From: a virus
Lineage: Duplodnaviria > Caudoviricetes
Length of the DNA stretch: 64,000 nt
IMG/VR virus record: IMGVR_UViG_3300009788_000012
Span: 292-64,291 of that record
Reading direction: 5' to 3' (one strand)
Of the stretch, positions 7,435 to 47,267 are shown piece after piece; the stretch's first letter is position 1; the number at the start of each line of letters is the position of its first letter. Below the pieces are notes generated by a model that was not told the DNA's origin, did no database searches, and saw nothing but the letters and a program-made list of their open reading frames with translations. Position numbers and translations under genes: made by a program.

Positions 7435-8577
7435 TTATACCTCCTCTTTCTCTGTTAGTTCGGGATGAGCTGTCTCAATGACATGGAACTCTTCTGGCAA
7501 GTCCTCAAGCCCATCCCTCATCGGGTTAAACCCTGCCGTACACAGGGCTCTGAACTGACACGTCATTCCGGGCGACTTGCAATGTTTATCATTGCGTGGC
7601 CAACGGTTGTTCTTAATGCTTTCTCGCAGCGCCTGGCCCCAGTCCCAAAGATCCTGTTGGCCGTCCTCGAGGTCGTTGCCTATGCGCTGCACCTGTTCGC
7701 GCCGGAAATACTCTTTGGGATTCTCTGTGAGGATCGCTTTGAGTCTGGCACCGAACTCCTTAGGGGTCTCGGGACGCCTCAAAATAAACGAGTCAGGCCT
7801 GTCTTTTGGCTTGGTCTTGTAGGGCTCGCCATTTTTCTTGATGAGTCTTTCGCCCGACGGAGTCATCACTTGCGGCAGCTTATCTTCTGGGTGAAGGTGG
7901 TTGACTTCCTTCGGCCTTATCCCGGGCTTGCGAAGGACGTCGTAGAGGCAAGACTTGACATCGATACCCATTGCCTGGGCAGCGGTTAGGTATGCCGTCA
8001 CCTGCAGATCAATGGCGAGGCCTTTCCAATAGTCTGCGCCAGGACCAATCTCGTCGACAGTGGTCTTGTGCTCACCGATGCAAATACCATAGTCTGGTAT
8101 GTTAATGACTTTGTCAATAACGCCTTCGAGTTCGAAGGTGCGGCTTCCTCTACCTGTACCCGGGTTGACGAGAGGAACCTTAAATGCTAACTCAGAGTGG
8201 ATTGGTTTGACTGGCGCCCCGGACCACCTGTTCCAATAGCCGCGCAGGAGAGCCTCGACCATCTCAATATCATAGAAGTACATCTTCTTTCCGCGTTCTG
8301 TCTTCGGTTCGCAGGAGAACCAGCCTTCGCGGACGGCACCGATAATTTCATTAATGGTAAGCATCTTATAGGTGGGGTCTTTGGCTTTGTCTCCAGCCAA
8401 AAGAGAACTTTTCGCCATCAAGTCCAAACCGTAATGTACACCCGTACCAATCCTGAGCGGCGATGGTGGGTCGACCATTCTAATCTTGCAACGATACGCG
8501 AGGCATGCCTTACGCGGACAGCCGGCGTTACAGCGTATCATACTGACAGTGAGTTTTTCTGGGGGTTTCTCAGACAT
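7435..8577 (-). CDS. PD-(D/E)XK exonuclease (RecB/Cas4-like)
   Basis: GCPRK, IGTGVH, SELAF, GVIDK, GEHKTT, LQVTAY and C-terminal CxxxxxxCxFxxLC Fe-S-type cysteines. Confidence 0.85.
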   Translation of the reverse strand: MSEKPPEKLTVSMIRCNAGCPRKACLAYRCKIRMVDPPSPLRIGTGVHYGLDLMAKSSLLAGDKAKDPTYKMLTINEIIGAVREGWFSCEPKTERGKKMYFYDIEMVEALLRGYWNRWSGAPVKPIHSELAFKVPLVNPGTGRGSRTFELEGVIDKVINIPDYGICIGEHKTTVDEIGPGADYWKGLAIDLQVTAYLTAAQAMGIDVKSCLYDVLRKPGIRPKEVNHLHPEDKLPQVMTPSGERLIKKNGEPYKTKPKDRPDSFILRRPETPKEFGARLKAILTENPKEYFRREQVQRIGNDLEDGQQDLWDWGQALRESIKNNRWPRNDKHCKSPGMTCQFRALCTAGFNPMRDGLEDLPEEFHVIETAHPELTEKEEV

Positions 8578-8606
8578 TCGTCTTTGCTCCTTTGGTGCAG
8601 CTTTCG

Positions 8607-9836
8607 CTACCCCTTTATCACCGCAATCGGTGTCAACTCAGTGACGATCTCGACGAGGTCGCTTTGCTGAGCCATAACCTCGTCGATGTCTTTGTAAGCT
8701 CCCGGGGCTTCGTCGAGGTCGTTAGCATTCGTCATGGTGTGCTTGATGCCCTCCATAATCGCCTGTTGATCGGCAAGGTCTAATGTCTCTTTCGCTTTCT
8801 TGCGGCTCATCCTCCGTCCGGCCCCATGCGAGCATGACATGAAGCTGTTTGGATTGCCGAGTCCCTTGACAATGTAGCTCTTCGTACCTTGGGAGCCCGG
8901 GATGATACCCAGCTCACCAGCACGTGCCCTCGTCGCGCCCTTGCGGTGAACCATCACGTTCTTGCCAAAGTGGTTCTCAAGGGCCGCGTAGTTGTGGGCG
9001 ATGTCGATGTTTTCCTTCTGGCTAGGGTTCATAGACGTGACAGGAAAGTGTTTCCACCCCTCCGCCCTACGGTTGTGAAACACATTAGCAAGCGCTGCCC
9101 TCACCTTGCACCCCATCTCAAAGCGATTGATCTGGGCATACCTGACACACCAGTTCATCTCTCGGATATACGTCGCGTGAGAAACTCCGTGTATATAATG
9201 CTCTCCCGGCATAATATCTGCCAGAAACGCCAGGTCGTCTTGCGTATCCGAAAACCAGGCGGCGTTCAGCTCTTTAGCTACCTTGTTATAGTAGTCAGCA
9301 ATCTGCTTGCCGACATTGCGGCTCCCTGAGTGAATCATCACCCAGACCCACCCCTCCCCGTCTTTTTGTATCTCAATGAAATGGTTGCCTCCTCCTAAGG
9401 TGCCAAGCTGTTGGGTGGCGTTCTTTTTGTGCTTACCCGCAATAGGACACAGCCAATCATTAGGGAGTTGCCTGTATGTATATGGCGTCCTGGCGTGCTT
9501 TTTACAGCCAACCGGTACCGTGCTGCGGATGATGTCGATTATTTGCTCAAGACGCTCATAGGTTAGGTCGTCAGCCGTCAGCACGGTCCTGAAGGCATAG
9601 ACGCCACATCCAATATCAACCCCTACAGCGTTGGGTATAACGACGTTTTGGTCGGTCGCTAACACACCACCGATAGGCATACCGTAGCCCATGTGGCAGT
9701 CCGGCATGATTGCGATATGGTGGAAGGCGAAGGGGAGACGAGCTAAATTATAGATCTGGTCGAGTGCGCCCGCCTCGATATTGGGGCACCAACTCTTGAC
9801 ATGAATACCGCAGTCCGTTTCGAATGCTTCGTGCAT
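8607..9836 (-). CDS. rtcB: RtcB 3'-phosphate/5'-OH RNA ligase
   Basis: MPDCHMGYGMPIGGV, VGVDIGCG, QLGTLGGGNHFIE, HSGSR, HNYA, HRKGAT, IPGSQG, SCSHGAGR, DEAPGAYKDI; AAGGAG RBS. Confidence 0.97.
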   Translation of the reverse strand: MHEAFETDCGIHVKSWCPNIEAGALDQIYNLARLPFAFHHIAIMPDCHMGYGMPIGGVLATDQNVVIPNAVGVDIGCGVYAFRTVLTADDLTYERLEQIIDIIRSTVPVGCKKHARTPYTYRQLPNDWLCPIAGKHKKNATQQLGTLGGGNHFIEIQKDGEGWVWVMIHSGSRNVGKQIADYYNKVAKELNAAWFSDTQDDLAFLADIMPGEHYIHGVSHATYIREMNWCVRYAQINRFEMGCKVRAALANVFHNRRAEGWKHFPVTSMNPSQKENIDIAHNYAALENHFGKNVMVHRKGATRARAGELGIIPGSQGTKSYIVKGLGNPNSFMSCSHGAGRRMSRKKAKETLDLADQQAIMEGIKHTMTNANDLDEAPGAYKDIDEVMAQQSDLVEIVTELTPIAVIKG

Positions 9837-10255
9837 CTGTTTGCTCCTTCTGTTGTACCGCCTATGTTGTATAATGCCCGTCTCTCCGGGCTGTCACGCC
9901 GTTCCGTGGTTGTCCAATTCCAGGCGTCCTCGTATCCGACTTACCAAACCACTTGGCCGCATCAGTCTAATGGCTTTCCGGTGCGATGAGCATCATGTTC
10001 ACCATAGCTCACAGAATTTGACATCCCGGTAACCATCAAGGCGTGGCCTTGTGCTAGGTTAGAATTTCCAGCAAACTCAGGAGTGCGCACTGGTGTAGCT
10101 CCTCCGGGACTTGAAAACTATTCAAATGTTATGTATCAAAGCTGGCTCGTTAATTGGTGAGCCACGCCATCGCGGGCGCCTGTTTTAGTGTCCTCTGTGG
10201 GGGCAATTATCCGCGCTTTTCGAGGGATGCCATCCTCCGTATGCAATGACTAAAC

Positions 10256-10335
10256 TGGTACCCGACGACGGGACTCGAACCCGCAAACACCACGACTCTT
10301 AATCAGGCTCGCTATGCCAATTCGCGTACGTGGGT
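10256..10335 (-). tRNA. atypical tRNA (Leu-like; anticodon AAG or TAA ambiguous), CCA-ended
   Basis: ACCCACG-TA-CGC GAATTGGCATA GCG-A-GCCTGA TTAAGAG TCGTGGT-GTTT-GCGGG TTCGAGT CCCGT-CGTCGGGT-A-CCA. Bulged acceptor stem and irregular anticodon stem. Confidence 0.65.
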
Positions 10336-10532
10336 GACCAGTAAAGATTATTCAAATTTTAGGTCCACCCCACAGGAAGTCATCCCGACTAAAGCGTTTT
10401 AGCCCCGTAGACCAGCGGGTAGGGCGGATAATGGTCAAATATTCTTAATCCTCGCACCCCTTCTCGACGAACAGACGTCTACTTTGGCGGCGAACGCATC
10501 AAGTTTCGATGCGGTGCGAGGAATAAAAATAT

Positions 10533-10601
10533 GGGAGGTGCTCTATCCGCTGAGCTACACGTATGGGGGCGTGGCGGGATTTGAACCCACGACCTCCTCC
10601 C
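10533..10601 (-). ncRNA. circularly permuted tRNA-like RNA 1 (short acceptor stem)
   Basis: GGGAGG-AGGTC-GTGGG TTCAAAT CCCGC-CACG CCCCCATA CGTG-TA-GCTC AGCGGATA GAGC-A-CCTCCC. Confidence 0.85.
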
Positions 10602-10702
10602 TAAAGCTTATTCAAATTTCAGGGGCGCCCGCCTAGCGGCTTCAAAGGCCTATGCGAAGCAATACGGTTTCAGTATTTTTATCGAGAGACGGGCGCAAAC
10701 AC

Positions 10703-10775
10703 GGGAGGCGAGATGACCACTTCTATATACACCCCTGACGGGTGTAGCCGGATTCGAACCACGCGATCTCCTCCC
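10703..10775 (-). ncRNA. circularly permuted tRNA-like RNA 2
   Basis: GGGAGG-AGATC-GCGTGG TTCGAAT CCGGC-TACACCC GTCAG GGGTGTA-TA-TAGA AGTGGTCA TCTC-G-CCTCCC; perfect 7-bp acceptor stem closed by a 5-nt loop. Confidence 0.85.
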
Positions 10776-10781
10776 TAAAAC

Positions 10782-10860
10782 AGGGAGGTGCTCTACCTAC
10801 CAGTTGAGCTACGTCGCCCTGAGGGGGCGTCGGCAGGACTCGAACCTGCATCTCCTCCTT
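10782..10860 (-). ncRNA. circularly permuted tRNA-like RNA 3
   Basis: AAGGAGG-AGAT-GCAGG TTCGAGT CCTGC-CGACGCCC CCTCA GGGCGACG-TA-GCTC AACTGGTAGGTA GAGC-A-CCTCCCT. Confidence 0.88.
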
Positions 10861-11172
10861 AAAACTGTTCATTCAAATTTTATGATTGCATTCGCGGAAG
10901 GGCGGCGCCCTTTAAGGATGCCCGCCCTTCCGCTCGACATAGGAGGTGGCGATATTTTTAGTGAGACGCCATCACTGTAAGTTTGGTTAGCCAGCAAAAG
11001 TAATCCATGCCTCCTACGATTGTTCAACTGTAGTCATTGCTCTTGGCGAGTAGTCTCGCGTCAAACATTAGGCATTGGTCTTCTCCTTTTGGGTGCTTTC
11101 CCGTGCGGGGCACAAATTCTATTTTCAACTTGTTGATGGGTGTCTTACCCGTTCTCCCCTCAACTTGACCTA

Positions 11173-11201
11173 AGTGTACACGAAAACGATCCGTTTGTCA
11201 A
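11173..11201 (-). promoter_or_regulatory. sigma70-type promoter for the ncRNA array-rtcB transcript
   Basis: TTGACA-17 nt-TACACT on the minus strand with an AT-rich upstream segment. Confidence 0.8.
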
Positions 11202-11240
11202 GTACTTTCTCAAAAAACTTTTAGAGGGGCGCAGCCCACT

Positions 11241-11612
11241 CTACAGCGCATCTTTCTTCCTGTGGTTCCGCCACGCGAGCCAGCCGCCCATGCGAACACC
11301 AGCCCAGATGATGCGTGCCTTCTTCGCGCGGCACTCCTTCATGGCTACTAGGAATATCTTGTCGCACTCTTTACGTGTATAAACACCAATATCATACAGA
11401 TAGTCGTGCAATACTGCTGCCTCCCCGTGACGCCCCCAGCGGGGCACTATGTTCCAGAGGCCGCGCGGTACAGACGCAAAGTCCGTGACGAAGCCGGCGG
11501 GCACTGTGATGACGATACCTAATTCGTCGTATCGATACCTTAAGGGCTGCATTAGCCTCCATCGCTTACCGTCACCCAATGGGGTTACTACTAGTTTGTT
11601 TGTGAATGGCAT
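11241..11612 (-). CDS. DUF1353-family protein
   Basis: VPAGFVTDFASVPR...AAVLHDYLY...RKECDKIF...GVRMGG. Confidence 0.88.
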   Translation of the reverse strand: MPFTNKLVVTPLGDGKRWRLMQPLRYRYDELGIVITVPAGFVTDFASVPRGLWNIVPRWGRHGEAAVLHDYLYDIGVYTRKECDKIFLVAMKECRAKKARIIWAGVRMGGWLAWRNHRKKDAL

Positions 11613-11618
11613 TGTTTG

Positions 11619-14600
11619 TTATCTCCTTGTTCTGCTTCGCACTCTGCCTCTACCTCTAGTTTTTCTCCTCGTTCTTTTAGCTGCGTTCACTTTAGCTTTC
11701 TTCCTGGCGGGCGCACCAATTAGACCGAGACCAGATTCAATCTTCTGGATAACGCCACCCAGGGGAGCGCCAACGATATTGCTACTACCTTCGACCAACT
11801 CAAAAACACCGCGTAACGTTTGACCGTGGTCGGCATTGGATAATCCTTTCGCCAGATCTTTTGCGCCAAACCCGAGTTTGTTTATTGTGCTGCCAACAAG
11901 AGATTCGTGAATTTCCTCGGAGAATCCAAACAGTACTTCCGCAAATGCCTCCGTGCCTTCAACCGCAGCTTCTCCTACGCTCTTGTCTGACCATTCCACA
12001 TCATTGATTTTTTTTGCGGCCCCCAGGATAACGCGAGATAACTTCCCCGCCCAGGGGACGAAAGACGACGGAAATTCAGAAAGGAAATTCATAACGTCAT
12101 AATCGCCGAACCCGGCATACCAATCTAGGAATGTGTTTTCTTTCTCTAGTTCCTTGACATCATCTGGGTCAGGCTTCCATTTAGAACCAAGAGCCGCAGC
12201 GAGCTTAACTATAAGCACTGATGCCGCGCCGGTTCTGGCCATCCTGAATCCCTTCCGGATAAGGGAAGATGCAAAACCATTAGCGACAGCCGTTAGTGCT
12301 GTGCCCATCAGGTTCTTGGCATTCTCCGGGGTCTTGTTGTACTTCCATTTTAGCCAGTCCTTGTACCAAATATTAGCAGCGACAGAAGGTTGACCAAAGA
12401 ACGGCAAGAAGATGCCGAAGCCTGTACTCTTGAGAGTGCGATACTGCACGGTCTCCTCGAGGGCTGTGGCTGGGTCTTGAGTCTTGCGAATAATCTCGTC
12501 AAGGATGTCAATCGTTTCGACTTCACTTCTTCCTTGATCCTTCAAGAGTTTATAGGCGGCTACTGCATTCCTCTGTTCTGCGATAGACATACCTTGTAGG
12601 GCCTTGCTCTGCCAGCGTCGCATTGCGAGTTGTGCTAAAGATTTACTGGCCTTTACATCTACCGGTAAGTTGGACATAACGCGAAGTTCATCCATTACCC
12701 AGCGATGGTAGAAATAGCCTTGCTTGAGCAACTTCTGTCGAATGGCTTCGTTCTTTTTGTCGGCGAAAAATCTAGTAGGTATCGCCAGCTTACCCGTAGC
12801 AAATGTAGATATACCCAATTTGCGCAGTTCGTTCGCGAGTAACACGCTACCCGGCCCCCTGTTCATAAGTACGGTGCTAAGCCTTGACCCCAGAATGGCC
12901 GGAGAGGTACGGCGCTGGATAGCCTGAAGGAACTTATCTATATCGGTCCACTTGTCCGAATGTTTGGTAACACCGGCGAGTGCGAGGACGTTATCCACCA
13001 TGTTCTGTGCGAACTTCGTACCTAGTGTCTTAGCCATGGTTTCTTTTACTTTAGGATCATTAAGTAAAGATATTGCATCCGATCCGGGTACCAGCATATG
13101 AGTCCAAGTGGCCATGTCGTACACCTGCTTTTGGAACCTATCGAAAACATCGCCAAGCATAAGTACGTGCTTATGCGGAACTCTGTTCTTGGTAAAATTG
13201 GGATTCATTAACGACGCGACCTGGTTGTAGTCCTTGCCCCGAAAGTCTTCAGACTTCTGCGGTGGGGTGTCAGAGGTATCAGGAGTCATCACCCAATGGT
13301 CTTCATTGAAGAACCTTTCCCTTCCAAAAACACTCAAGGAAGCCAGGTTTGCCTCCGGGACAAGAGCATTCTTCAGCGAACGCATCTCTTCGACGATCTT
13401 CTTTTGTGAAGAAGACAGGGTGTTTATTAAGGGTCCGATGTCTTCGAATCCAAACTTATCAACGCCGGGTTCGTTTTGAATTCTTTTACGCTCAGCCTTA
13501 AAGCCATAAGATCGAAGGTGCAGCCGCGCCTGCGGGTCAAGCATCAGGGCATATAGCTCCATTATTTCTGCGTCCGTGAATTCGAGAACGCGACCATCAA
13601 TATTGTGCTTTTTGAGTTTGACGATCCACAAACCCATCTGCTTGTTAGTGACATTGTTGTCTTTAAGCAGATCCTGAAAATCCCTATGGATATCAGCCAC
13701 CGAAGTCAAGGAATCAATGTTTGCCCTCCGGAGTGATTCGTAGAAAACGCTATAGCCGACAGTGTCTATTTTCCCGCCGCCCATAACCAAGGCCATGGTA
13801 TTCTCGTCGCCTCGACCATCGCCAAAAAGGCTTTGAAACCACCCTCGCGTCTTCTGCGTTTCATTGATTGACTTTTTAAGCACGGGCAACGTAGAGGTCA
13901 GATCTTTATTGAGCTGTCCTGCGGCGTCCCCTTTCTGCGTCTTATTTTTGTCTGACAACTTCTGCTGCATTAGGGTCGACATTTTGAAAAGAGCGGAAAG
14001 TTCAAGCGCGAGAGTTCTGTTGTCTTTCCAGTTAGCCTTTTCAAGTCTTGCTTCGACATCGTTTTTCAGTTCTGCTATCTTCTTTTCTGAGGCTTCCACT
14101 TCGGCATGCGGGGCTTTGTTTTTAACCAGGCGACGGCGATTGTTTTTCTCTTCGCGCAGTCTGCTGAGCGTGCCTTGAATACCCTTGTAATCTCTTATCA
14201 GTTTCTTCGCCTGGTCCCCAAAGTCAGTACCGTTTTCTGCTGAGCCGTTAAACATCTTCTCTGGTACCGTCTTGGTCAACCACCTACGAAGATCGGCTTT
14301 CCAGTATCGATTCTCAAGTGTGTTCAGGCGCTTTCGTGCATGGACGAGAGACTTAGCAATGTCGCCGCGAGTCGCACGACGTATGGCGAGCCTGTTCTCT
14401 TCGCCGATCCATTCGTTCATGTCGGCCCGAGCCTTCTTGGTCTTTTCTTTTTCCGTTCCTGGGCCATCAAGGATTTCTTCCAGATGGGTAATCATGAAAT
14501 CGAACTCATCCATAGAGGTGCGCAGATTATCTGGTCTGCCTGCATTGATGGCCTGTATCTCTTTCAGCGCCTGGTCGATTGCGGCGTTGACTCCCTTCAC

Positions 14601-36175: not shown

Positions 36176-36886
36176 CTAGGAGCTTCTATCCCAGCTCCTG
36201 GTAATCTTGCCGTCGACATGGCACTTAAAGGACTGTGCTGCCTTTTTGTTAATAATCATGTCACAACGCTTAATGATGTGTCCTCTGTATATTTGCCCAA
36301 TCATCTCATTGAACAGAACGACCCATTCCGACCAAGGCAGAAGATCCAGGTAGGGTACACATCTTCGAATGTGAGTCCAGTCGTTACAATCAGTGAGTGT
36401 GGAAAATTTCAGATGAGCCCGATGTTCAAACTGATCAATAAACGAATCTAGGCTATCCCTCGTTCCTAACTGCCCTGAATAGATAATCGTGCTTATAGTC
36501 AGGTCCGAAGAGAAGTCAGATTGGCTAGGAAGCCGCCAAAGGCCAGACGGGTAGTTTGATATATTGAAGCAATCTATTACTCCGTCCACAGATTTGAGTA
36601 TTGACGGGAGGGTATAGTTCGTCGTAAGGACAGATCGAAGTTTGGACTCGCGCACAAGGTGCGCTATTTCCTTGAGTCGAGGATGCATGCACGGCTCCCC
36701 ACCCGTTAGCAGGACATCTTCGAGACCTTGTTGTTCGGCGAAGCTAATGGCGTTAGCTACGCTGTCAAGAGAAATAAACCCCTTGTCGCCCCTGTATTTA
36801 TCAATGCAAAACTGGCACGACTTGTTGCACTCATGCGTAAGTACTATGTTTATATACGAGCCCGCCACTTGTTTTACTGAGAACAT
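36176..36886 (-). CDS. radical SAM enzyme
   Basis: CNKSCQFC (CxxxCxxC), LTGGEP, LTTN. Confidence 0.88.
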   Translation of the reverse strand: MFSVKQVAGSYINIVLTHECNKSCQFCIDKYRGDKGFISLDSVANAISFAEQQGLEDVLLTGGEPCMHPRLKEIAHLVRESKLRSVLTTNYTLPSILKSVDGVIDCFNISNYPSGLWRLPSQSDFSSDLTISTIIYSGQLGTRDSLDSFIDQFEHRAHLKFSTLTDCNDWTHIRRCVPYLDLLPWSEWVVLFNEMIGQIYRGHIIKRCDMIINKKAAQSFKCHVDGKITRSWDRSS

Positions 36887-46966: not shown

Positions 46967-47267
46967 TGCTCCTTTGGTTGCGGGGTTCGTATTTTCCTGA
47001 TGCAAGCATATTAAAGAACTCTCCAATTGAGAGTAGCTCGGTTGGTGCCTTTTTCACCGCGCAGACCATCAGGTCAGGGCGCGGGGCAACCATCACACTT
47101 GTGTGAATAGCGTCGAAGGTGTTCACGTCGACTACCTGGCTGTGCGGATGAACGCGCGCAGCTTTTACGTGCGCTGGGTATGATGGGTCGCCCAGTATCA
47201 GATAGAGGTGTGGTTCCAATTCGAAGAAGTCGCCCGTGTCGAGTGTTTGGAGTTTTACTTTGGTCAT
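46938..47267 (-). CDS. hypothetical protein
   Basis: 109-aa ORF with GGAGG RBS. Confidence 0.5.
   Translation of the reverse strand: MTKVKLQTLDTGDFFELEPHLYLILGDPSYPAHVKAARVHPHSQVVDVNTFDAIHTSVMVAPRPDLMVCAVKKAPTELLSIGEFFNMLASGKYEPRNQRSNETNGNSND

Follow-up and report, generated by a model that had tools for sequence, protein, structure and literature searches.

Candidate YrlA-like tRNA mimics in a tandem array upstream of rtcB in an SU10-like phage genome without a Ro60 gene

Introduction

Bacterial Y RNAs carry a tRNA-like domain for which several roles have been put forward: a tether between Ro60 and an effector, an aid to ligation by RtcB, or an inhibitor of anticodon nucleases. One of these RNAs is YrlA (PMC4201824, Chen et al. 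2014; structure, 10.1101/312249), which the literature has already likened to circularly permuted tRNAs. According to 10.1101/312249, RNase P cleaves a mycobacterial YrlA whose stem has 7 bp, and this RNA is given CCA; the same source presents a model in which YrlA derives from dimeric tRNA transcripts, and the hypothesis that tRNA-like molecules contribute to RNA ligation. [quoted passage not shown] In PMC4201824 YrlA was recognised by its position within ~4 kb of a Ro60 (TROVE) gene, and by the methods of that paper its phage sequences are those near TROVE genes only.

Phages encoding Ro60 with adjacent Y-like RNAs include mycobacteriophages, CcrColossus, Bacillus phage G and Thermus phage phiLo (PMC4201824, PMC12135203). 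A phage Ro60 with two Y-like RNAs upstream of its gene forms complexes with host PNPase (PMC12135203). Other RNAs of related shape are known. Circularly permuted tRNA genes occur in some algae and one archaeon (cited in 10.1101/312249), a source that states that no report of such a splicing endonuclease exists for bacteria. The b7a-tRNA, a tRNA-like RNA predicted by Burroughs and Aravind 2016 (via 10.1101/312249), adjoins RtcB and a Band-7 protein. RtcB requires a 3'-phosphate or cyclic phosphate end, and ligase repair of tRNAs is a phage counter to anticodon nucleases (PMC7824862).

Results

The units lie in a non-coding island flanked by rtcB and a tail-module gene

The SU10-like phage has a complete genome of 64 kb; its record has 64,291 bp with terminal repeats and is rated 100% complete. 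We analysed 64,000 nucleotides of it (the window). An RNA island of ~1.4 kb, bounded by a tail-module gene and rtcB, held three minus-strand units in a tandem array (Table 1). As the original prediction had it, rtcB was the next protein gene, being the first minus-strand ORF of at least 50 aa downstream of the units, and its start lay ~700 nt from the nearest unit end. The best solved relative of its product was the Pyrococcus RtcB (E 2e-39). Co-transcription of the units with rtcB, as stated in the original prediction, is an assumption.

Table 1. Features of the RNA island and its surroundings (positions in the window)
Feature	Position	Strand	Remark
Unit 1	10784..10858	-	acceptor-closed tRNA-like core
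Unit 2	10703..10775	-	most degenerate copy; abuts unit 1
Unit 3	10533..10601	-	acceptor-closed tRNA-like core
rtcB, RNA 3'-phosphate/5'-OH ligase	8607..9836	-	Pfam RtcB, E 2.9e-108
Marginal tRNA-like gene, between units and rtcB	10260..10335	-	ARAGORN call
Leader box AAnATTTGAAT	10871..10881	-	upstream of unit 1
Structured spacer, unit 2 to unit 3 leader box	10618..10702	-	-27.5 kcal/mol, z -2.27
Strong hairpin, upstream of first leader box	10893..10936	-	z -3.31
Sigma-70-like promoter match	11173..11201	-	TTGACA, 17 nt, TACACT

The promoter match (10/12 positions, a consensus match only) was upstream of the entire island, and no minus-strand terminator-like site was found in 8400-11700. None of 200 shuffles was as stable as the strong hairpin, which had no T run on its 3' side on the minus strand. 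The spacer gave a branched fold with a 10-bp G+C-rich closing stem. Further copies of the leader box were found before unit 3 (10610-10620), before the marginal tRNA-like gene (10350-10360), ~280 nt 5' of rtcB (10120-10130) and 2 nt 5' of a tRNA (40468-40478). Its core ATTTGAAT was counted seven times in the window, where 2.49 +/- 1.48 copies were expected; 1 of 100 shuffles reached this count. Five of the seven copies precede RNA genes or rtcB and are on the minus strand. The box may be a promoter or a processing signal. Six loci elsewhere that matched the leader-box pattern were set aside as chance matches because they had neither a model match nor a tRNA.

The ARAGORN call for the marginal gene was tRNA-Leu(aag); its D stem has 3 bp, and mismatches occur in the acceptor (two) and in the anticodon stem (one). 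The gene scored 20.7 bits with the Rfam tRNA model (cut-off 29); its fold had a z of -2.76, and its acceptor stem was lengthened by leader and trailer. The tRNA-like gene at 40396-40465 was also aberrant, with a 6-nt anticodon loop.

Each unit has the order of a tRNA opened in its anticodon arm

All three units ran from a closing stem through a variable loop, T arm, loop-capped acceptor, UA and D arm back to the closing stem. In unit 1, GGAGG is followed by a 4-nt variable loop and the T arm GCAGG/TTCGAGT/CCTGC. Its acceptor, CGACGCCC/GGGCGACG, is a hairpin of eight positions with a single A.A mismatch and the cap CCTCA, after which come TA, the D arm (GCTC, a 12-nt loop, GAGC), an A and CCTCC. 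Unit 2 has the same order with a single bulge in the T stem, three pairs in the D stem and a 7-bp acceptor (TACACCC/GGGTGTA). Unit 3, again of this order, has an acceptor of only 4 bp (CACG/CGTG) and an 8-nt loop. U8, the D-loop GG and the T-loop TTCRA were common to all three, and units 1 and 3 preserved the D-stem, D-loop GG and T-loop letters.

Each unit can form a tRNA-shaped body. The minimum free energy (MFE) fold of unit 1 (10774-10880, z -2.21) was the cloverleaf plus a 6-bp outer helix, in which GAACAG (10865-10870) pairs with CUGUUU (10778-10783). The MFE fold of unit 3 likewise contained the cloverleaf, beyond which a 5x5 internal loop led to an outer helix of 7 bp (10607-10613 pairing with 10521-10527). 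Unit 2 had no outer helix and its cloverleaf was not the MFE fold (z -0.11). The MFE fold of the whole array contained an 8-bp hairpin at the junction of units 1 and 2 that competes with unit closure.

The units are paralogues with compensatory changes

We built a covariance model from unit 1 alone (R1) and searched the whole window with it. It recovered unit 3 at 38.5 bits (E 1.7e-9) and unit 2 at 22.0 bits (E 2e-4); it also gave 31.7 bits to a genuine tandem-tRNA junction at 40363-40428. In a three-unit alignment, itself model-fitted to the structure, 98.3% of 60 pair cells were standard pairs and 7 of 21 pairs had changed on both sides, three of these in the acceptor helix. No shuffle out of 500 matched these pairing and covariation values, and slid controls were 43-52% paired. 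The covariation is limited to three paralogues in one genome because relatives of the array were not found. These results confirm the predicted three permuted, acceptor-closed units on the minus strand and the covariation of their acceptor stems.

The acceptors had also been predicted to pair only within their own unit. Within units the 7-nt strands formed 6, 7 and 4 Watson-Crick pairs (units 1, 2 and 3), as proposed. Between units there were at most three pairs including wobble, with one exception, the 5' strand of unit 2 and the 3' strand of unit 3 (5 Watson-Crick and 1 GU), and for this reason 'only' was slightly overstated.

The units are not callable tRNA genes as they stand

ARAGORN, run with and without introns and at a relaxed threshold, called no unit as a tRNA. 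The Rfam tRNA model gave 21.5 bits (cut-off 29) over the junction of units 1 and 2, with four acceptor pairs broken. Forward pairing of the seven acceptor positions gave 2 Watson-Crick and 1 GU pair from unit 1 to unit 2, and 5 and 1 from unit 2 to unit 3. Ordinary tandem tRNA genes were rejected on the missing ARAGORN call, the sub-cut-off Rfam score and the broken acceptor pairs, and an intron-containing tRNA across units 2 and 3 on the missing call with introns of up to 400 nt allowed.

When the units were rotated in silico, as had been suggested, the constructs were tRNA-like: ARAGORN called 22 of 24 versions, with the position of the join chosen by us. All three units were called as tRNA-Lys(ttt) when most of the 7-nt loop came from the 5' flank, the result for 11 of the 24 versions. 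The call on rotated unit 3 extended 2 nt past the sequence end because its acceptor has only four pairs.

The original prediction had also suggested circularisation by RtcB, which found no support. Rfam gave 10 matches at E<=10 across 9700-11300, and none belonged to a self-cleaving ribozyme family. The flanks did not form a bulge-helix-bulge, the endonuclease motif that leaves ligatable ends; unit 1 had a one-sided 6-nt bulge and unit 3 the 5x5 loop. The 4-bp acceptor of unit 3 argues in the same direction.

Two of the three units align to the full YrlA model

We then compared the units with the Rfam YrlA model (RF02553). Unit 3 with flanks (10517-10614) scored 39.4 bits (E 9e-7, model positions 1-114), and unit 1 with flanks (10774-10871) scored 27.4 bits (E 0.0026, full model 1-114). 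Unit 2 had no match at E<=10. Thus the proposed model search gave full-length alignments for two units, but all scores were below the gathering cut-off of 69 bits and one unit was unmatched. Sub-threshold YrlA matches alone are unspecific, being found in 9 of 14 reference genomes.

Both alignments run through the short outer helix of 6-7 bp made by the flanks, so that the absence of a long stem was overstated as a ground for separating the units from YrlA. These helices are A/U-rich (6 bp in unit 1, 7 bp in unit 3), and they do not match the letters conserved in the terminal stem and loops of YrlA.

No Ro60 gene in the complete record

The 64,291-bp record as a whole gave no TROVE/Ro60 match at E<=1, in a search whose control was positive in 2 of 14 reference genomes. 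The predicted absence of Ro60 from the window therefore holds and extends to the full record. Pfam on 40 ORFs and PHROGs on 45 ORFs, largely overlapping sets, gave no Ro60-like match. An unannotated ORF of 543 aa (45395-47026) was considered as a hidden Ro60 and rejected, with no Pfam TROVE signal at E<=1 and no usable Atlas match.

Two RNA ligases were found in the phage. The second is a PF09414 protein with the PHA02142 OB fold (phrog_968, E 4.9e-40), and its gene is downstream of another tRNA cluster with the same leader box. No Band-7 domain was detected among the 40 ORFs scanned with Pfam.

Closed modules elsewhere lie beside Ro60 or in tRNA arrays

BLASTN of 8400-11300 against the phage collection returned four records, all through rtcB only (68-74% identity), and the RNA island was unmatched there. 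Unit 1 had no BLASTN match in E. coli genomes, and relatives of the neighbouring nuclease gene were not found.

In viral_contigs we found 27 further loci with RtcB relatives (29-56% identity). The expected co-occurrence with rtcB was not seen: by a strict descriptor and by R1, none of the 27 carried a closed unit within 4 kb. The single descriptor match (L023), on the strand opposite to the rtcB coding match and at its start, was discarded, as were the only two R1 matches, both weak (15.1 and 14.8 bits) and at called tRNAs. The closed modules that were verified among these 27 records lie beside Ro60, not rtcB, so linkage of the module with RtcB is not a general rule.

A pattern of closing helix and T loop was present in at least 117 stretches of viral_contigs. 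Of 117 pattern sites, 102 were inside ordinary tRNAs of various isotypes (Asp 41, Ala 17, Glu 14, Ile 12, Val 5, Lys none) and 15 outside any called tRNA; an origin of the units from tRNA-Val was not supported by these isotypes. Seven descriptor matches among the stretches were tandem tRNAs or chance. Full closed-unit patterns had no match in viral_contigs and 25 loci in genome_contigs, none of them with a closed module by inspection. In metagenome_contigs they matched 76 loci, five of which held closed modules by inspection (L155, L208, L170, L153 and L203, the last two identical in sequence); the rest were tandem tRNAs or coincidences.

R1 gave 45-53 bits to the independent closed modules L155, L153, L170 and L208. 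In all 11 parsed modules the stretch from the T stem to the UA-D arm folded as a hairpin, end to end in eight and with 1-2 terminal bases unpaired in three, and the hairpin sequences were unrelated. L155 (30.5 bits with Rfam YrlA) directly follows a TROVE ORF; like the units it is closed by a GGAGG/CCTCC helix, and its outer stem is just as modest. The phage record G015 has one closed module (41.2 bits) ~400 nt from TROVE, and G002 has two (29.3 and 29.7 bits) ~2.5-3 kb from TROVE. No ARAGORN tRNA overlapped any of these four. Since TROVE-adjacent modules score 29-41 bits, the Rfam YrlA cut-off is conservative for closed modules.

Discussion

The three units are very probably YrlA-like tRNA mimics, a set of paralogous small RNAs. 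That they act as a decoy or as an RtcB helper is plausible, and much less certain than the identity. We put the combined statement, YrlA-kind tRNA mimics with a decoy or helper role in a conflict over tRNA cleavage, at about 55%.

On this reading the units would exist as discrete RNAs, whose source would be their own leader boxes or else a read-through transcript that is then processed. The ends of each RNA would form an anticodon-like stem, with the acceptor capped by a loop and the T arm ahead of the D arm. With neither a cleavable anticodon loop nor a free CCA, the units would be tRNA look-alikes that are not substrates, acting in the conflict in which rtcB and the second RNA ligase presumably serve. 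One possibility is competition for tRNA-directed nucleases of the host or for other proteins that bind the tRNA elbow; alternatively, the units may help RtcB to locate broken tRNAs. Neither action would depend on a phage Ro60. The decoy idea is not new, having been published for YrlA's tRNA-like domain (PMC7790460).

Among the alternatives, true Y RNAs that use a putative host Ro60 (Rsr) survive best, and we regard them as unlikely. In that case Ro60 would bind at the outer helices of units 1 and 3, with the tRNA-like domain as a tether between host Ro60 and PNPase or another effector, so that a phage without its own Ro60 reprograms host RNA decay. This agrees with the alignment of these two units to YrlA over the full model, terminal stem included, with the helices of L155 directly after its TROVE ORF, and with the published complex of a phage Ro60 and two Y-like RNAs with host PNPase (PMC12135203). 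Against it, the outer helices are 6-7 A/U-rich pairs without the YrlA terminal letters, unit 2 has none, and the G002 and G015 phages with verified modules encode their own Ro60.

Somewhat less likely again, the units might be functionless relics, left upstream of rtcB by a decayed tandem tRNA array or by tRNA-gene recombination. Unit 2 is degenerate, unit 3 is short of three of seven acceptor pairs, the marginal gene and the tRNA-like gene at 40396-40465 are aberrant too, our searches found no relatives of the array, and a dimeric tRNA origin has been modelled for YrlA itself (10.1101/312249). Drift would not be expected to keep 98.3% of the cells paired with two-sided changes at 7 of 21 pairs, three of them in the acceptor helix. 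Units 1 and 3 keep the letters of the D stem, the D-loop GG and the T loop. The units are also not halves of a callable tRNA, and modules of this closed topology are present in phage and metagenome records that are unrelated.

We consider it improbable that the units are permuted tRNA genes, trimmed at their ends around the anticodon loop, joined into a circle by RtcB and then opened at the acceptor cap by RNase P and 3' processing to yield tRNA-Lys(UUU). The rotated versions and their tRNA-Lys(ttt) calls point that way, together with the adjoining rtcB and the acceptor stems of 7-8 positions in units 1 and 2. However, RtcB also requires a 5'-OH end, and to our knowledge primary transcripts carry neither this nor a 3'-phosphate or cyclic phosphate. 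Nor was a ribozyme family (E<=10) or a bulge-helix-bulge found to supply such ends; unit 3 has a 4-bp acceptor and a call that overruns its sequence, and the joins of the rotated constructs were our choice. The TTTA that gives UUU is also found 3' of the leader box at the unrelated tRNA-like gene (10335), and it may therefore be leader sequence and not an anticodon remnant. Processing of a closed stem has a precedent in the mycobacterial 7-bp-stem YrlA that RNase P cuts and that is given CCA (10.1101/312249). The specific form in which pre-opened tRNA-Lys(UUU)-like genes, once their flanks are trimmed, have their anticodon loop sealed by RtcB and their cap opened by RNase P and 3' processing is very improbable. 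If this ligase-dependent route were true, the phage would have a lysine tRNA that host anticodon nucleases cannot pre-empt, and no bacterial virus before it would have had a pathway for maturing permuted tRNAs.

Hardly probable, finally, are cis-acting elements of a long transcript ending in rtcB, tRNA-shaped punctuation at which RNase P or tRNA-processing cuts set mRNA ends or stability: the promoter-like site, the lack of a minus-strand terminator-like site down to rtcB and the leader box before the ~280-nt rtcB leader suit them, but three copies and a fourth tRNA-like gene exceed the needs of punctuation, the nearest unit ends ~700 nt before rtcB, and the closed modules of other records are found not in mRNA leaders but next to Ro60 or within tRNA arrays.

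Returning to YrlA-like mimics as the preferred reading, three tRNA-like domains beside rtcB, with Ro60 absent and the stem largely gone, mean a domain separated from Ro60. If the RNAs are expressed, the domain would have a Ro60-independent job in RNA repair or counter-defence, for which the array would provide a compact test system. The array also resembles a snapshot of the published model of YrlA from dimeric tRNAs. For annotation, the Rfam YrlA cut-off misses phage and metagenome members and tandem-tRNA junctions swamp the sub-threshold matches, so the self-pairing of the acceptor should be checked for each candidate.

Several known systems can be set beside this locus. Permuted tRNA genes of some algae and an archaeon encode the 3' half upstream of the 5' half, as do all three units, and the rotated units are likewise called as tRNAs; in contrast to those genes, no splicing-endonuclease motif was seen in the units and unit 3 cannot reach a 7-bp acceptor stem. 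The b7a-tRNA is also a tRNA-shaped RNA beside rtcB without Ro60, a likeness that fits the marginal gene better than the three units; it is described as a near-authentic, unpermuted tRNA. Phages also counter anticodon nucleases with tRNAs of their own, which replace or resist the cleaved host tRNAs. The kit of genes here is the same, RtcB together with an ATP-dependent RNA ligase beside tRNA genes, and a like conflict is implied, but the known answers are repair enzymes or functional tRNAs, whereas the units have no anticodon loop or CCA end and therefore cannot decode.

Like the phage Ro60 systems, the array is phage-borne, multicopy as those often are, and lies upstream of a same-strand gene for a repair or decay protein; their partner gene is Ro60, whereas here rtcB comes next and Ro60 is absent. 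YrlA shares with the units the T arm, loop-capped acceptor-like stem, UA and D arm in the same order, an anticodon-like stem made from the two sides of the module, the tRNA elbow letters, a variable acceptor stem length and a neighbourhood with rtcB (compare the Salmonella rsr-yrlBA-rtcBA operon). The units differ from it in having one helix fewer from the tRNA-like junction to the terminal stem, in a terminal helix of 6-7 bp (units 1 and 3) or none (unit 2), in their three copies, two of them abutting, and in the complete phage genome without a Ro60/TROVE gene. The permuted-tRNA view of the original prediction is not new, YrlA having already been described in this way, and the Ro60-less tandem array beside rtcB is an unusual arrangement of a known RNA class.

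Three units with a permuted tRNA fold

We found that the three minus-strand tRNA-like units (u1, u2 and u3) have the permuted order of parts that the original prediction had described. Read on the minus strand, each starts with GGAGG or GGGAGG and a variable loop of 4-5 nt, continues through a T arm (loop TTCRANT), a hairpin and the dinucleotide TA, and ends with a D arm that has GG in its loop, one further base and CCTCC or CCTCCC. We built a covariance model from u1 only; run over the whole window, it recovered u3 (38.5 bits) and u2 (22.0 bits). When the three units were aligned to this model, standard pairs filled 98.3% of 60 pair cells and two-sided changes were found in 7 of the 21 pairs (three in the acceptor helix, three in the D stem, one in the T stem), in a sample of three paralogues from one genome and an alignment fitted to the structure. 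None of 500 shuffled controls reached as high, and when the partners were shifted by 1-3 columns only 43-52% of cells were paired. The structure of the units is real and its earlier description was accurate.

Within u1, u2 and u3, the 7-nt acceptor strands form six, seven and four Watson-Crick pairs, respectively. The claim that they pair only within their own unit held for most combinations, strands from different units making at most three pairs (wobble included), but not for the u2 5' and u3 3' strands, which form five Watson-Crick pairs and one GU. The u1/u2 junction (10770-10788, minus strand) can fold either as an 8-bp hairpin whose loop has 3 nt or as a stem of 5 bp closed by a U-rich 9-nt loop. 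When the whole array is folded, the 8-bp hairpin of the minimum free energy (MFE) structure competes with closure of both units, so that their fold within a long transcript is uncertain. The junction stem-loop can be likened to an expanded anticodon stem-loop.

Relation to YrlA RNAs

YrlA RNAs, the bacterial Y RNAs of Rfam family RF02553, are described as carrying a tRNA-like domain and as neighbours of Ro60 in over 250 bacteria and phages (PMC4201824), and possibly descend from dimeric tRNA transcripts (10.1101/312249). Using the Rfam YrlA model at permissive thresholds, we obtained end-to-end alignments for u3 plus flanks (10517-10614; 39.4 bits, E 9e-7) and for u1 plus flanks (10774-10871; 27.4 bits, E 0.0026), both under the Rfam cut-off of 69 bits. 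In the Rfam alignment and in independent MFE folds the flanks pair into a short outer helix, of 6 bp beside a one-sided 6-nt bulge in u1 and of 7 bp across a 5x5 internal loop in u3; u2 has none because it abuts u1. The predicted lack of a long stem was thus only partly right: the terminal helices are short, and missing from u2, but the flanks of u1 and u3 do pair.

A metagenome pattern that demanded both strands of the closing helix matched 76 loci. By inspection, five of them hold closed modules, the others being tandem tRNAs or chance matches. One module (locus L155) directly follows an ORF with TROVE, the Ro60 protein domain (E 2.1e-11), yet scores 30.5 bits with the Rfam YrlA model. Two more, at L170 (2001-2084, minus; 34.1 bits), where the module, preceded by an HNH-like ORF and a hairpin, heads a 12-tRNA array, and at L208 (2001-2069, minus; 45.4 bits), inside a 5-tRNA array, had no Ro60 nearby among the ORFs scanned in 2-4 kb. 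Closed modules may be recurrent passengers of phage tRNA arrays. At L153 (1830-1990; L203 has the same sequence) a closed module, a second T-arm-like hairpin and a further hairpin lie within a ~10-bp G+C-rich terminal stem, a larger composite Y-RNA-like molecule; none of the four ORFs scanned in these 2.2-kb loci carries TROVE.

Among 27 virus records encoding RtcB relatives, TROVE was found in three and sub-threshold YrlA matches in five. After removal of matches overlapping called tRNAs, four closed modules were left: one in G015 (41.2 bits), ~400 nt from the TROVE gene; two in G002 (29.3 and 29.7 bits), ~2.5-3 kb from it; and one in G014, a provirus record 77% complete (37.8 bits), with no TROVE match. 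The u1 model scored the L155, L153, L170 and L208 modules at 45-53 bits. The stretch from the T stem to the UA-D arm is a hairpin in 11 of 11 modules, unrelated in sequence, paired end to end in eight and with one or two terminal bases unpaired in three. Taken together, these results place the units of the window, on sequence and predicted fold, in the same structural family as the Ro60-adjacent YrlA-like RNAs, and show that for members from phages and metagenomes Rfam sets its cut-off conservatively. We put the probability that the units are YrlA-like tRNA mimics, a known kind, at about 0.85.

Permuted or ordinary tRNA genes

The units might instead be permuted tRNA genes whose anticodon loop is sealed by RtcB. 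We rotated each unit in silico, closing its ends with seven flank bases in all eight splits, and ARAGORN called a tRNA in 22 of the 24 versions; tRNA-Lys(ttt) was called in 11, from all three units, when the loop came mostly from the 5' flank. These calls are suggestive, but the joins were our own choice, and the TTTA that gives the anticodon also follows the leader box (described below) before an unrelated tRNA-like gene and may therefore be leader sequence. This reading is further weakened by the acceptor of u3, with only four pairs, and by the ends of primary transcripts. RtcB requires a 5'-OH partner end, and primary transcripts carry neither this nor a 3'-phosphate or cyclic phosphate. 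On the 3' side the enzyme takes 3'-phosphate or 2',3'-cyclic phosphate ends (PMC7824862). The ten Rfam matches obtained at E<=10 from the RNA island, the ~1.4-kb non-coding stretch that holds the units, include no self-cleaving ribozyme family, and the unit flanks did not form a bulge-helix-bulge in MFE folds.

Ordinary tRNA genes fail as a source of the units, since no callable tRNA contains them. Neighbouring tRNAs can mimic YrlA when the T arm of the first is read together with the D arm of the second (PMC4201824); a real tRNA junction (40363-40428) scores 31.7 bits with the u1 model, and a sub-threshold Rfam YrlA search gave matches in 9 of 14 reference genomes. ARAGORN, with introns allowed or the threshold relaxed, called none of the units, and the Rfam tRNA model over the u1/u2 junction gave 21.5 bits (cut-off 29) with four acceptor pairs broken. 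A tRNA from the u2 5' and u3 3' acceptor strands needs a 101-nt anticodon-loop insert and is not called by ARAGORN.

Genomic setting of the units

The window is the whole virus record (64,291 bp) minus 291 bases; direct terminal repeats are present in this record, which is rated 100% complete. Pfam and PHROGs assignments identify a tailed phage, with structural genes (SU10-type portal and adaptor, capsid protein, large and small terminase, internal virion protein) and a replication/recombination module (helicase, AAA_24, PD-(D/E)XK nuclease, primase). Four minus-strand ORFs (1423-2466, 60085-60834, 59481-60125 and 36176-36886) together hint at modified DNA bases in the phage; they carry an N-terminal domain of dATP/dGTP diphosphohydrolase (E 4e-18), a domain like thymidylate synthase, a DNA methyltransferase and a radical SAM domain.

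Features of the RNA island and of the second ligase module
Feature	Position	Strand	Remarks
u1	10784-10858	minus	
u2	10703-10775	minus	
u3	10533-10601	minus	
rtcB	8607-9836	minus	Pfam E 2.9e-108
DUF1353 tail-assembly-chaperone-like gene	11241-11612		other boundary of RNA island
Sigma-70-like site	11173-11201	minus	TTGACA, 17 nt, TACACT
Leader box	10871-10881		before u1
Leader box	10610-10620		before u3
Leader box	10350-10360		before marginal tRNA-like gene 10260-10335
Leader box	10120-10130		before ~280-nt rtcB leader
Leader box	40468-40478		2 nt before tRNA of tRNA pair
tRNA	40396-40465	minus	Rfam 54.2 bits; ARAGORN: 6-nt anticodon loop, two-base 'anticodon' gc, 8-pair acceptor, 4-pair T stem
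tRNA-Met(cat)	40318-40393		adjacent to 40396-40465; sole canonical tRNA in window
Second RNA ligase	38766-39917	minus	PF09414 and PHA02142 OB fold; phrog_968, E 4.9e-40

The closest solved structure to the phage RtcB is Pyrococcus RtcB (E 2e-39). Between ~9837 and 11240 the one minus-strand ORF of at least 50 aa is a 52-aa TTG-start frame upstream of the units (10869-11027); the next protein gene after the array is rtcB, and at this ORF length the claim that rtcB comes first downstream on the same strand was borne out. At the head of the island (11060-11201, minus) the promoter-like site is followed by a hairpin, a Shine-Dalgarno-like AAGGAG and a four-codon mini-ORF (ATG CCT AAT GTT TGA), possibly a leader or an element of regulation. 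Since a promoter-like site lies upstream and the minus strand as far as rtcB gave no terminator-like site, co-transcription of the units with rtcB is possible. The one sequencing run found to cover this region is of DNA.

At E<=1, TROVE was not matched anywhere in the complete 64,291-bp genome; a control search found it in Deinococcus and Bacteroides. There was no Ro60-like match in Pfam (40 ORFs) or PHROGs (45 ORFs, largely the same) and no TROVE signal in an unannotated 543-aa ORF, in agreement with the predicted absence of Ro60 from the window. The association of units with rtcB did not recur: none of 27 other phage RtcB loci had a closed unit within 4 kb of rtcB. In other RtcB phages verified modules follow Ro60, the G014 module apart. 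Searches of phage and virus collections by sequence, pattern and neighbour genes found no relatives of the three-unit array. In 8 of the 27 phage loci (L003, L005, L007, L010, L012, L021, L022 and L027) tRNA genes lie within 4 kb of rtcB, and in L003 and L007 tRNA-Pro(tgg) directly adjoins it.

An 11-nt leader box, AAnATTTGAAT, stands before five features of the window. Its 8-nt core occurs seven times in the window against 2.5 expected, five of these at the five features. It may be a promoter or a processing signal, which sequence cannot tell apart; upstream of each box, fold prediction gave a strong hairpin or branched structure. Within the spacer that leads up to the third box, the 3' part (10358-10430, minus) folds as a cloverleaf-like three-hairpin junction with a ~10-bp closing stem, no tRNA loop motifs and an unremarkable overall z-score (-0.47), and could be a highly diverged tRNA-shaped RNA or chance.

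Downstream of the tRNA pair come a small ORF (39914-40288, 124 aa, no family) and then the second RNA ligase. Because the box occurs both before this pair and in the rtcB island, both RNA ligase genes lie downstream of box-marked tRNA or tRNA-like genes. The ORFs scanned included none recognisable as a polynucleotide kinase/phosphatase. Just upstream of the pair, 40500-40575 (minus) is tRNA-shaped, with an acceptor-like stem of 7 bp and a hairpin resembling a T arm (loop TTTGATT), and is odd at the expected anticodon arm; it gave no ARAGORN call and no Rfam match at the gathering threshold.

Function and comparison with known systems

A Salmonella anticodon nuclease is reported to leave the YrlA tRNA-like domain uncut, the domain being possibly a competitive inhibitor (PMC7790460), and a phage Ro60 with two Y-like RNAs upstream to bind host PNPase (PMC12135203). 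The two functions originally proposed, RtcB-circularised RNAs or decoys for tRNA-targeting defences, are hypotheses already in print for the YrlA kind. The single most likely function of the units is a putative Ro60-independent decoy or helper role. Outside an RNA-repair comparative survey and a 2020 review, where a mention is possible, we found no published Ro60-less phage array of such units.

Compared with the YrlA consensus, the units have one helix fewer, and their terminal helix is short and A/U-rich. Their context is what is new: they form a tandem array immediately upstream of rtcB, their terminal stems are reduced, and the phage genome, which is complete, lacks Ro60. Also new are the other aberrant tRNA-like genes, with a leader box in common with the second ligase module.
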